A stretch of 30,277 nucleotides of DNA from a virus (taxonomy: Duplodnaviria; Caudoviricetes). This document shows positions 16,519 through 25,000 of the stretch, piece after piece. The translations under genes and the position numbers were made by a program. A model generated the notes under the pieces. The model had not been told where the DNA came from. It worked only from the letters and a program-made list of their open reading frames with translations, and did not search any database. Location: IMG/VR virus record IMGVR_UViG_3300031951_000845, positions 1 to 30,277 of that record; one strand, given 5' to 3'. Numbering within the stretch: the stretch's first letter is position 1; every line of letters starts with the position of its first letter.

Positions 16519-16532
16519 AACAGGAGGTGGGT

Positions 16533-19031: not shown

Positions 19032-22000
19032 ATTTTCTTGACTCGCTCGGCAAGGCTGCTGAAAAAATACAATCAAATGGGTTTGCCAAGGACATTGGCT
19101 TACCGACTCTTATGTTTGATGTTGCCAGCATTGCCTCGAACGACAAGAACTGGGTAGGAGATGCGTTCAATATCGCTGCATCTTCCTTTAGAAGTAGCGT
19201 TCTAGCAGCATCGTACCCAATCCGCAAGACTGCGGGCGCTGCTTTCAACAAAGTTTTGCTTCCTACAGCGCAGTTGTCTTACCAAGTTGGTGGCAGATAC
19301 CTGCGTGAGCCACTTTCTGCAGCGCTTTTGACCGCTGCAACGGGTGATGTCAAGAAGTCATGGGAAAACCGCGACGAGATTTCCGCTGGTCAAGCCCTTG
19401 CCTACCTTGGCGACAGGATGACATTCGGAGCAGCACCGTTTATACCGCAAGACTTCGACATCTTCAACCCCAATGACCGCAAGATTTTTCAAGAGGACTG
19501 GACTCTTCGCACCCTTACAGGCGCTTACGACACATTCTTCACAACAGTTACAGACCCGCTAGGCAAAATAGGAAAAGCAGCAGGTCTTGCTAAGAAGGCA
19601 CTGGTTACCCGTCCATTGGGTATGGCAGATGCCAATATGAAGACCCTGGCTCGTGAGTTTTTCGTACCGAAGTCCATCCGCTCTACCACGATTATGTCCC
19701 CCCAGACCCTTGCTAAGGGAATCAACGAGGGTCGTGAAGAAGGTGGCGAACTTTATAACACGCTTTCGTGGTTTGCTAAGAGCGACCAGATTGCAGTGCG
19801 TACACACCCCATGGTTGCAGCATCTACTGATGCAGACACTCTCTCATATTTGTTGGGTCAGGCTAAAAGCGTTGATGAAGTAGCGGACACACTCCTTGCA
19901 GTATCGGTCCGCGATACCGAGGCTATGGCTCGCTTAGTGCAAACTCGCAAGCAAATGTCTTTTGTCTTTGACAAACTCAAGGACACACCACGCACCCAAA
20001 AGCAAGCGTTGGATAACATACCAACCAACGGTATTGTCGAAGATGCCAATGTCTTGGCAGCAGCAGATGATTTGCTTGCCACATTGGGCGAGGACCCATA
20101 CTTCAAGGCTCTTTCTACCTTTGACGATAGAGCAGCAGATTTGAGTAAGCGTACATTCGGTACGCCAGTATTTGAGAAAATGGCTATCAACCGTGCGGAA
20201 CGCCGTGCTGCCAGACTCAAGGATTTTGACCGCCCCACTTCCTTTCCTACGGTAGGATACTTCCAGCCAACCAAGTACCACCCACTCGTGGCGGTAGTCA
20301 ACTTCGGTGTAAAGAAGGTCGGAGATGGATTTGCTGAGAAACCAGCAGGTTATGTCAACCTCAATGACTCTGATTCCTTTACTGAAATTGCGGCATTTGG
20401 CAACCTTCTGCGCCGTGTTGTTGGAAATGGCGCAAGAGAGACAATCCAAAGACACCTAGAGGATTACATCAAGTCTGGTGGTACACCTGAACTTCGTGCC
20501 CGTGTCGTTGAGTCTTTTGAGGACGAGTCCATTGCTCTCATCAACCGCAGACTCGGAGTAAGTGACGAAGCAGGTGCTGCTATCTGGGCAGCGTATAAAC
20601 AACGCCGTAACACCGCCCGTCAAACAATCAAGGACCGCAAGTTCTTGATGACCGAAGATGACCTCATCCTCAAGATTCCATACCTAGAGCGCCAAGGTGC
20701 TAACGCACTGCCAATGGTTGACCTAGAGAACTACGCTCGTGTTATCGAAAAGAACAAGGGCTTTGTAGATTCCTTGGCTGGTGGTTTAGACATCAACGAC
20801 CCAGACTCATGGCGTTACACCACGGGTATTCTCAATGACATGTGGAAGGCTTCGGTCCTTCTCCGTCTCGGCTATACCATCCGAAATGTCTCCGAAGGTG
20901 CACTTTCTATCCTTGCCAAGGGCTACGGCTTGATGGCTTTGAGCGACTTGAACAAAGAAGGATTCGGTGCTTGGTACACCAACCGAGTCCGAGGACTTGA
21001 GCGCCTTGCAGATAAAAGGCTTGTAGCCCAAGGACTTCGTGAAGATTCTGTCAAGTTGCGCCAAGCCTTTGCTGAAAAGCAACAGGAGTTCATGGCTTCT
21101 GAGCGTTTATACGACGAAATCAAAGATTACTTGCCAGCAGTTGAGCGTTTATACAGACAGGGCAAACTGACCGAAGACCAGTACCGTGAGGTAGTTGAGG
21201 TCTTTCAGTACGCAACAGGCGAGTGGCTATACCACGGCTCAACAGCACCGCTAACTGGTTTAGACAATGCCCGCGCTTTTGCGATGACTTACTCTGAGGA
21301 CATTGCCAACCGCTACGCAGAGGCTGGCATGCCAGTTATCTCAGCATCTGAGATTTATCGTAGGATGACCGGCAGGGCTTACCCGATGCCGAAGAACCTA
21401 CGCACCCGTGAGGGCGAGCGCCTTACCCCAAAGCGTGAACCATCGCTTTCTATGCAGACTATCGCAGCAGATATGCGCGAAGGATTCCAGCGAAGCACTG
21501 ACAACGGCAATACCGTTGAAATGCTCAACACTCAGACTGGTCAGTGGCGTGCTATCAACCCAGAGACTGTCTCGCAAGAATCGCTTCTTTCCCGTCAGTT
21601 CCGAGTCCGTAAGCCTGGAAACCAGGGCGTTGTCATGGGTCGCAAGGTGTACGGTCAGACCGTTGACCTTCGCCTAATAAACGGCAACCAGTCTCGTATT
21701 GGTCTAAACGACTATCCAGAACTCAAGACAATTCTTGAGATTGACAGCGCTGCTAAGTGGCGTGGTCGTGCCGGATGGGAAGGCAAAGAGAATCGTCTCC
21801 TTGATTGGATGCGAGCCAACGGTGTTGGCAAACTCGTATTGCCAGATAACAAGGCTAATGGGCGTGCAACCATTCTGGTTGACCCCGACATGGTTGAGGC
21901 GTTTGGCAAGAACCCTGTTGTGTCTTTGGCAGAGAAGCGTATAAACGCAGTCAAAAATCAACAGACACTTCTTGGCGAAGAGTCACGCATCGCAAGCATC

Positions 22001-25000
22001 ATTGAGCGCACGGTTCAACAAGGTGGCGGAACATTCCGCTTTGCCGAGTCTATGGATGGTGATGTACCAACCCAAGGCGTATCCGTTGCAGTTCGTGGCG
22101 CTACCCACTCGTTCAGCCTTGAAGATGCACGCACCAACCCACAGGCATGGATTGACTCCATGGCATCTCACTTTGAGAAGAACCTGGAAAAGTTTGGTAC
22201 CGCTGACCACTTCGGTACTTGGGTTGAAGATATTGATGGCGTGCCACACATTTGGGCAGAGCCAGTCAATGTCGTTATGGACCGCAAGAAGGCTGTACTA
22301 TTAGGCTCAGAAAGAAACCAAAAGGGTGTCTTTGATGTGGGCAAGGGCGAGTTTATCTCCACGGGAGGAACAGGCGATGAAGGAGCAAGCGCAGCGTTTG
22401 CATTGGGTCAAGGCACCAAAGCCAATTTCGGATATGTCTCCAGAGGAGCGGCAGGCGTTCGCCAGAGAACTCGCAGAGAAGGCTTTAGAGAACGCGTTGA
22501 TGAACTCTCGGCAGCCATTGCCTCCAAGCAATACCCTCTCGACGGAATAGTAAATATCATCCGTGAGATTGCGGATGGTCAGGCTTTTGTCCGTAAGGAC
22601 ATGCAACAACTCATGGCTCGTCTCGATGCTCGCATCGTAGAAGAAGCAAGGATTGGTGGACCTAAGGCAATTCAGGGAACTGGTCGCCGTGTAGAAACAC
22701 TTTATGACGGAACTAAGGTAGAGATTGACGATGCCTTCGGTGGCGAACTTGGTCAGATTCTACTCGACAGAACCGACAACACACAGTCCTACAGGAACTT
22801 CGTAGATTACCCTTCGCAGTTGTTTAGCGCCCAGTATGGCAACTTTGCTGAGGAAACCCTCACGCCAAACATGCCTCAGTACTACACGGGTTATGCCAAC
22901 TCGCTCAACACATTCTTCCGTTCCCCAGATGGGCGTATTGACCCGCTCATCGAAATGTTCATCAACGGCAGCAAGCCAGAGGATGTAGTCCGATGGCTGC
23001 GAAAGCCAGAGAACAAGGCATACGCACAGCGCTTCAATATCGACACACCTGGTATCAAGGTGCAGTCAGAGCGCTTGAATGTCTCGATTGATGCAGAAGA
23101 GTTCGTTGGTGACTTGTATAGCGCCTACAACCGCTACCTGCCAGATGCTCAGATTCAAGAAGCCTTCCGTGCTGGAATCATTGATGAGCAGTGGCTACGC
23201 CGTCACTTCGCAGATGAGCCTGCTATGCCAGACATCATTGGGCGTATCGTGCCAACCAGCCCACAGGCTCGTAACTGGCAAGATGCTATGGCTAAGGTTG
23301 TTGACCGAGCGTTCTACTTCCTTGGCTCACTGCCTGAGACAACGATTGCTCGTCACCCGCTGGCTCGTCAAATCTACAGGGCTGACATCAAGCAACGCCT
23401 CAACACAGCCTTGGCTACAAAGCGTGTAAACGACCCAAAGGCTGAACTAACCCTGGATGAAATCAATGCCGTCCGCAAGGTTACGATTGAGTCAACGCGC
23501 CGAGAAATCAACAAGACACTTTTTACGATTATCCGCAAGTCCTACGCGGGCGAGAAGATGCGCTTTATCATGCCGTTCTTCAACGCCTGGGAGAACACCA
23601 TCCGCCGATGGGGTGGCTTGGCTGGAGACAATCCGGCAGTCATTGCCCGTGCAGGTCAGATTGTTTCCTCCCTTCGTAATCAGCCTAATGTGGTTGACCA
23701 GAACGGAAACCCAACAACTGAGTTCTCCTACGACAACAAGATTGTTGTGCCTATGTCAGAGGGCGCTCTTAGCGCCGTTAGCAAGATTCCAGTCTATGGC
23801 AAAGGTATGGCACAGGCGCTTCGCGCAGCAGGAACCGAAGTAAGGATTCCAGTGCGAAGCCTTGACATCCTGTTCCAGGGTGAAGCAATCGCTGGATTCG
23901 GTCCAGTGGTAACCATGCCAGTCAACGAGATTGTCAAACTCAAGCCGGACTTGGAAGACATTGTTACATCAAGCGTGCTTCCTATCCTGCCATTCGGTCC
24001 ACAAGAGGGAACCATCCAGCAGTTGTTCCCACCAGCAGCGCAGAAACTTGTCTCGCTCGTTGGACAGGATGAGGCATGGAGTCGTACCTTCAACACCGTC
24101 TATCGTTATGAGTTGATTCGCTTCAACCTTGGCGATAGGGACACGATGCCAACGCTTGAAGAAGTGCGCGAACTGGCTAACAACATGTACCGAGTCAAGA
24201 TGCTCTCGAATCTGGTCATGCCATTCGCTGCCCAGTACGACTCGCCACTAAGTTTCTACACTACGCAGTTCCGCAAACTGCAGCAGACCTACGGAGCCGA
24301 TGCAGAGGTGCTATTCCTGCAGATGTACCCAGAGATGGGTCCTGCTTTGGTGAGTGCTTCCTACAACCCAACGGGTGCACAGGCTTCTCAGAAGGCGTAC
24401 CAAAACATTCAGAAGTACAGCAGCCTTATAAGCAAGGTGGGTCAGCAAACCCCTGAGATGATTGGCTTCTTGGTCAATGACCCTGAGGGCAAGTATGACT
24501 TCTCTGAGGCTGTGTACGCCTGGCAGTATGGCAACGCACCAGTTCCTGGCTCAACCGAGAACTACCGCGCTCGCCGAAACCCTGCTGAACTCAAGAAGGA
24601 TGCCAATGTCAAGGTTGGCTGGATTGAGTTCCGCAAGAAGATGAACATGCTTGATTCACAGTTGTACGCACAGGGCTACCAGTCATACTCGGAATCAGGC
24701 GCTGAGGAGTTCAACACCCTTCGCCAGATGATGATTGCCGACATCACAACCCGCAACAAGGACTGGGCTGCTGACTACTACAGCGTAGATAGAGGCAAGT
24801 GGATTTACCGCATGGAGTCTCTCAAGACAATGCTCTCAGACCGCAAGTGGATGGCTGACAACGCGCAGCGCCCAGTGGTCAGCAGCATAGCAATTTACCT
24901 CAATACGAGAACACAGATTGCCAGAGAGTTGGCTAACCGCAAGGCATACGGTGGGGCATCAACCCTTACCGCGAAGGAAAACGAAGACCTTGATGGCTAC

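Follow-up and report, generated by a model that had tools for sequence, protein, structure and literature searches.

A selected gene nested in the +1 frame of a giant phage ORF and its linkage to one uncharacterised domain family

Results

A 57-residue gene lies in the +1 frame inside the 2,022-residue ORF of the window (the whole 30,277-nucleotide stretch of tailed-phage DNA analysed here), immediately downstream of an uncharacterised domain. This gene is real: a 37-residue core of its product is selected as protein in the +1 frame, the only such segment in the 2,022-residue gene, and the peptide is a family-wide partner of the domain upstream. The best reading of these results would be an effector-plus-inhibitor cassette, with a layout like that of a MuF toxin and its immunity gene, that sits in the middle of polyvalent virion proteins, the partner gene being kept as a nested ORF.

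A giant ORF with an inserted block of domains

The window is a phage head module with genes for the terminase, the portal, the 2,022-residue ORF, three more large genes and the major head protein. The giant ORF lies between the portal (phrog_104) and major head (phrog_1357) genes and matches phrog_10618, a family of unknown function (E 4e-72). Like polyvalent proteins it is a large multidomain protein encoded among virion genes, and it likely belongs to the polyvalent proteins that are packaged in the virion; packaging as well as ejection is suggested by the order of the genes and by homologues with an annotation. It is related to gp9 of Streptomyces phage FlowerPower (1,635 aa), which aligns to residues 258-638 and 1134-2017 and has no counterpart for approximately residues 640-1130, about 490 residues of inserted domains. 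The domain considered here is assigned to this inserted block because gp9 lacks a counterpart between residues 638 and 1134. A Pfam scan recognises no effector domain in the giant protein of the window, nor is there a match to PF04233 (MuF) anywhere in its 2,022 residues.

The inserted domain that precedes ours carries a motif that we take to be ADP-ribosyltransferase (ART)-like (Table 1), and a Pfam search of this region gave no match. In 13 of 30 relatives the ART-like region holds an extra insert of 158-214 residues at about residue 800, the presence of which differs even between close relatives; all three inserts tested (L017:2597-3943, L052:1606-2943 and L088:1588-2943) match ADPrib_exo_Tox, with E between 1e-6 and 6e-12. 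In two relatives (L018:2599-2911 and L025:4378-4936) the giant ORF stops early, 104 and 186 residues past the domain, in L018 through a frame change; both early ends may be assembly errors. The listed GTG starts at 16527 (portal) and 19028 (giant ORF) have no well-spaced Shine-Dalgarno sequence, and the true starts possibly lie elsewhere.

Table 1. Features of the giant ORF and of the gene nested in it (positions in the window)
Feature	Position	Strand	Remarks
Giant ORF, 2,022 aa	19028..25096	+	Contains the nested gene
Preceding inserted domain, aa ~728-975	21209..21952	+	H-G-S...F..T motif; conserved in relatives
Uncharacterised alpha/beta domain, aa 988-1117	21989..22378	+	Ends T-G-G-T-G-D; cognate to the nested peptide
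Shine-Dalgarno-like GGAGG	22364..22368	+	From the Gly-Gly codons of TGGTG; 8 nt before the ATG
Nested ORF, 57 aa, partner peptide	22377..22550	+	+1 frame of the giant ORF; ATG 22377, TAG 22548-22550
Selected peptide core, residues ~6-42	22394..22501	+	dN/dS and column conservation over 54 homologues

The nested ORF in the window and in close relatives

The codons at the end of the domain (ACG GGA GGA ACA GGC GAT GAA) supply both a GGAGG and an ATG, and the first-pass annotation was right in placing the former 8 nt before an out-of-frame start of a 57-residue ORF. An open +1 run in one genome alone is not beyond chance, as +1 runs of at least 45 codons make up 16 of 61 in the giant gene, and synonymous recoding of the linker that the main frame encodes here leaves the +1 frame open with P=0.47; for 25 representatives the median is 0.26. 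Across relatives it is beyond chance. Five scans yielded 199 loci. Adding the window makes 200, of which all but L107, truncated ahead of the site, extend to it; these 199 collapse to 68 distinct non-redundant overlap regions with 48-100% domain identity. Both frames are open in every one of the 68, with a +1 product of 54-61 residues, so that the stop codons that the first-pass annotation had proposed looking for in relatives are absent throughout. Searching with the domain alone gave 97 loci; the ORF is present in each of the 96 that extend to the site, and the conservation is therefore not a product of searching with the peptide. Conversely, all 62 viral and 28 metagenome loci retrieved by the peptide profile contain the domain.

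The start signals are kept to differing degrees. The start codon is ATG in 66 of the 68 regions and GTG, behind AGGAGG, in the other two. The Asp codon that supplies it is GAT in 68/68, compared to 52 of 126 Asp codons in the gene of the window, the 68 sequences being related. What had been described as a perfect Shine-Dalgarno sequence is present in the window, yet only 24 of the 68 keep GGAGG at 8 nt; the rest have weaker forms, 17 having a loose purine-rich stretch only. In 11 regions the ATG lies two codons later with AGGAG 6 nt ahead, the start and ribosome-binding site thus having shifted together, and four of these 11 read ATG TAG ATG.

Selection on the two frames

We estimated dN/dS (Jukes-Cantor) from 25 representatives below 90% identity (300 non-independent pairs), drawn from the 61 of 68 regions whose flanks were long enough. 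Over the core, dN/dS is 0.19 in the +1 frame and 1.34 in the main frame. On the domain flank the values are 1.04 and 0.22, and on the downstream flank 0.92 and 0.23, respectively. When considering the 191 closer pairs, the core gives 0.24 in +1 and 0.57 in the main frame. Purifying selection hence switches from the main frame to +1 over the core only in the dual-frame comparison that the first-pass annotation had suggested. Its description of the ORF as a real protein holds for residues ~6-42; the last 15 codons follow the main frame (1.26 in +1 and 0.16 in main for the close pairs). A similar picture emerges from the ratio of third- to first-position variability in 30 full-length giant genes, which bottoms at 0.49 at residue 1122, compared to a lowest value of 1.17 outside residues 1085-1175 and a median of 1.76.

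The core consists of a hydrophobic strand (L8-x-W10-V11), a P-K-P motif, M20-[ST]-x-x-E24 and an amphipathic helix (F28, A29, L32, A33, A36). The conserved positions are the hydrophobic residues 8, 10, 11 and 17, M20, S/T21, E24 and the helix face formed by 28, 29, 32, 33 and 36. Two called proteins of 63 residues on short contigs (P0005 and P0006) include the core of the peptide and stop near its residue 43, in agreement with the selected core.

These values bear on the possibility that the ORF is an unexpressed relic of capture or a by-product of constraint on the main frame. Open +1 runs of such size are common in one genome, and the transcript coverage of the nested ORF comes as assembled contigs of one RNA run, both of which would suit this explanation. 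Against it stand the core dN/dS of 0.19-0.24 in +1 and 0.57-1.34 in main, reversed on both flanks in a pattern unique in the gene, and the lack of any stop in 68/68. We give it next to no probability, and the relic of capture that the first-pass annotation had allowed for is ruled out by dN/dS.

The upstream domain and its host proteins

The domain corresponds to phrog_17808 and phrog_3170, both of unknown function, and its family comprises 565 cluster representatives at E<=0.001. Predicted alone, it gives confident models (pLDDT 87.9 and 90.7). None of the Pfam models match it and PDB searches gave no match, as did hhalign against SAM lyases, so the label "enzyme-like" given to it by the first-pass annotation found no backing in any family or fold. 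Because the domain has no Pfam or PDB match, "enzyme" for the domain and "inhibitor" for the peptide are putative labels here.

The domain occurs in internal virion proteins of cyanophages (P60 gp34, Syn5 gp45, S-CBP42 and SS120-1), and the ORFs that carry it have Pfam matches to ART, MuF, ParB, GNAT, zeta toxin, NUDIX, 2H and prohead protease; of 57 proteins scanned, 19 gave a match of any kind. The zeta toxin, NUDIX and 2H matches are in host proteins without the partner; ART, MuF, ParB and GNAT are also found in hosts, MuF in one distant host protein (L318). This company matches the effector domains described in the available text on polyvalent proteins (PMC5512222).

The partner gene in distant phages

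A motif scan returned at least 120 loci, 103 of them distinct, of which 4 belong to the close clade and 99 are distant. Among the matches listed, a profile made solely from close-clade peptides reaches 10 bits or more behind TGGTG in 17 of the 99 when the +1 frame is read, compared to none of 99 in each other frame and none of 4,566 control windows. At the 99th percentile of the controls, 31 of the 99 listed loci score in +1, compared to 3 and 1 in the other frames, and a second profile round adds 6 of the remaining 68 listed. Setting aside 15 loci with a broad domain score below 60 bits leaves 84 confident distant loci. Among these listed matches, 36 have the partner in +1 right behind the TGGTG end of the domain; in 30 it is nested, the main-frame ORF running on, and in 6 it is free or overlaps the domain's stop. 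In the free forms (L278, L308, L289, L299, L327 and L262) the main frame stops 2-36 codons past the domain; the nested class includes L316, which runs to the contig end, and several loci that show only 99 codons downstream. The homologue search proposed by the first-pass annotation thus found, in distant phages, nested as well as free peptide genes that follow immediately on the same domain.

A feature invisible to the peptide profile agrees with these assignments: GGAGG in the TGG codons together with a start codon at the domain end is seen, among the matches listed, in 27 of 36 partner loci compared to 5 of 48 others, in 12 of 13 compared to 3 of 32 when counted by 60% clusters, and in 9 of 10 compared to 1 of 17 below 58% G+C. 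In a separate set of nine loci from bacterial genomes, L377 contains a nested partner (18.5 bits) and L376 an in-frame fusion (15.3 bits); the other 7 are without it. Among in-frame protein tails, 3 of 86 reach 10 bits, the best being P0011, a fused form (17.0 bits). In a tree built from 87 rows of the domain, free forms are interspersed with nested ones, and partner presence requires 7 changes compared to 28.9 for shuffled labels; given this clustering, the loci represent few independent events.

The distribution of nested, free and fused forms also bears on a programmed +1 frameshift, by which a shortened giant protein would end in the peptide. The shift is always +1, from the domain end, and in-frame fused forms exist, as such a mechanism would have it. 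Yet four of the 68 relatives place an in-frame TAG directly before the ATG, start and Shine-Dalgarno sequence move together in 11, the GGAGG-plus-start feature marks the listed partner loci, and free-standing forms lie beyond the domain's stop. We regard frameshifting as very unlikely. The occurrence of partner homologues across distant nested, free and fused loci points to the Gly/Ala/Arg linker of the main frame, and not the peptide, as probably the newer, overprinted frame, which fits the neutral-looking dN/dS of the linker. The featureless look of the linker had been ascribed to overprinting; the neutral-looking ratio agrees, with the difference that the linker itself is probably the overprint.

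Domain copies without the partner are frequent. Among the matches listed, none was detected at 48 of the 84 distant loci, 19 of them in ORFs of at least 300 residues, nor was one detected in the four cyanophage proteins named above or behind stand-alone actinophage domain genes. Five loci (L263, L284, L309, L257 and L293) by eye resemble divergent partners and were left out of the counts. After clustering, small stand-alone genes and large fusions have the partner in 1/13 and 8/24, respectively, among the matches listed, a difference that is not significant (p=0.12).

Several domain loci have features of their own. Eight small stand-alone domain genes (L258, L288, L304, L319, L328, L301, L310 and L370) are followed by a different conserved gene, with the motif DD.AA..LA.GHPKS...APGANGPPTTG. 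Four stand-alone actinophage copies (L172, L174, L176 and L177) lack the TGGTG tail and have G+C-rich, terminator-like hairpins downstream. In L378, L379, L380, L382, L383 and L384, from Armatimonadota- and Acidobacteriota-labelled genomes, TGG[TS]G is extended by a conserved PP..ERL tail and not by the partner gene. In ten loci (L338, L346, L339, L351, L297, L323, L285, L357, L255 and L265) the domain is divergent, with a broad score of 38-44 bits, and in two of them it is fused to a prohead protease. This form is followed by or fused to a protein of 60-70 residues with the motif L..M[ST][ND]EEI[DE].LI, which scores 5-14.5 bits with the partner profile and is possibly a longer form of the same pair. 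Finally, the domain forms the end of Bxz1 gp104 (L373:1637-3105), the stop of which is overlapped by the start of gp105 (TGATG), with AGGAGG ahead; the N-terminal helix of gp105 resembles the partner weakly (2.4 bits), which if real would offer a cultured test system.

Predicted complex of domain and peptide

The first-pass annotation had suggested modelling the domain together with the peptide. With ESMFold2 and paired alignments the pair gives an ipSAE of 0.56, compared to 0.00-0.01 for three controls (best 0.01), with contact agreement of at least 88% between runs and a partner pLDDT of at least 71. The tool rates such a score as weak: its mark is reached by 116 of 157 solved pairs and 2 of 215 mismatched pairs, and those that score no higher than 0.60 are just 18 of the solved pairs and the two mismatched ones. 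Given the gene linkage, this pairing was already likely before the prediction, and PDB searches found no similar complex. The model weakly suggests that the peptide binds the domain directly.

Another possibility is that the peptide is a small phage protein with a role apart from the domain, for instance as an anti-defence factor, in assembly or as an inhibitor of the ART-like domain next to it, and that the TGGTG codons only serve to start its translation. Codons for TGGTG can easily contain GGAGG, and a start codon arises from GAT-G or GGT-G; unrelated genes begin directly behind some stand-alone copies, and an ART-like region does lie upstream of the domain here. However, the same peptide family (26-36% identity) is found behind the domain in very different host proteins, every viral and metagenome locus found with the peptide profile contains the domain, only 1 of 25 partner-bearing host segments (~500 aa each side) has an ART match, and the control complexes, made with other chains, have the near-zero scores given above. 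We consider this explanation improbable.

The same linkage and the same complex prediction would be expected if the peptide were a needed subunit, chaperone or activator, completing the fold or an oligomer or helping packaging, and maybe co-delivered. Its strand and helix could add to a sheet. In-frame fusions exist, and as these would block the domain in cis unless cleaved, they fit a helper as well as an inhibitor. On the other side, the domain is predicted to fold alone (pLDDT 88-91) and many copies of it have no partner. A helper role is thus rather doubtful in our view, if less so than an unconnected protein.

Discussion

We lean towards a nested product that binds the domain and holds it inactive until delivery into the next host. 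The effector and inhibitor pair put forward by the first-pass annotation gains from the selected nested gene, its linkage to the domain and the complex model; the enzyme half of it gained no match. The original cassette was most likely the domain, a stop and a small gene coupled to it, an order that L278 and L308 still have and that MuF toxin-immunity pairs share. On its incorporation into longer proteins, this stop would have been lost or read through, the main frame then running over the partner gene. The partner would retain its start signals in the TGGTG codons, with an independent translation start at GGAGG and ATG, and would be made from the late message beside the giant protein, keeping the domain quiet during particle building. 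The domain would then act only after reaching a new cell without its partner. We propose only tentatively the account as a whole, in which phages move a new effector domain and its immunity gene into the interior of injected polyvalent proteins by stop read-through, the TGGTG codons give the ribosome-binding site and start, the inhibitor becomes nested and the linker is the overprint.

This account offers a solution to the problem of making a harmful domain late without self-damage when it lies in mid-protein, with no free downstream gene slot. The work defines an unannotated domain family together with a partner of 35-60 residues missed by gene callers, and suggests a simple rule for finding more: in polyvalent proteins, examine the +1 frame downstream of each effector domain. 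If the account is true, giant virion proteins would carry, in the linkers that follow their effector domains, a systematic and unannotated store of the inhibitors cognate to these domains. Among openly accessible articles and their main texts, we found none that deals with the domain, with the peptide or with partner genes nested in virion proteins.

Comparison with known systems

In the MuF polymorphic toxins of temperate phages, as the available part of the source describes them, a small immunity ORF directly downstream is the usual arrangement (PMC5576092). The likeness is that of a head-associated protein with a variable domain and then a small ORF: an ORF of fewer than 150 residues follows immediately in 68/68 close and 36/84 distant loci, and the free layout of the MuF pairs is seen in 6 of the 36 partner loci (distant counts among the matches listed). 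Unlike the MuF pairs of that description, the partner gene is nested in a continuing ORF in 30 of these 36 listed and in 68/68 close loci, and the effector domain is not C-terminal in the window (about 905 residues follow), being terminal in some distant loci (e.g. L278, L308 and L289). The protein of the window also lacks a MuF match, and toxicity and immunity are putative here.

Polyvalent proteins are large multidomain proteins encoded among virion genes, with ART, GNAT, 2H and NUDIX-type domains, according to the available text of PMC5512222, and the giant ORF and many of the ORFs that carry the domain fit this account. Unlike the domains of that account, ours matches no Pfam model; the available passages describe no nested partner genes, and the word "overlap" is absent from the main text.

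Phage SAM lyases (T3 gp0.3 and Svi3-3) and SAM-AMP lyases, for which the available portions of the sources give residues G56, Y58, E69 and Q104 (PMC7877911, 10.1101/2025.04.28.651013), are likewise small alpha/beta phage domains. By eye, G1063-x-W1065, E1078 and Q1098 of our domain, the Gln lying past the last helix, recall these residues, and among the 50 rows listed 7ock_L gives the longest alignment to the domain (96 residues). G-x-W is invariant in 54 rows, with D/E and N-Q present; the spacing differs from that of the SAM lyases, and N-Q is fixed by the search pattern in the distant rows. A SAM lyase would further be expected to have a ferredoxin- or PII-like fold, to form a trimer and to cleave SAM to MTA plus homoserine lactone.

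Each element taken singly has precedents, be it effector-immunity pairs, polyvalent proteins or phage genes that are nested. A precedent for the nesting is the Rz/Rz1 spanin pair of lambda, in which a small gene lies wholly in the +1 frame of another phage gene and the two products, membrane and lipoproteins of lysis, work together. Unlike Rz1, the partner described here is soluble, is tied to one internal domain, and moves with that domain between unrelated proteins.
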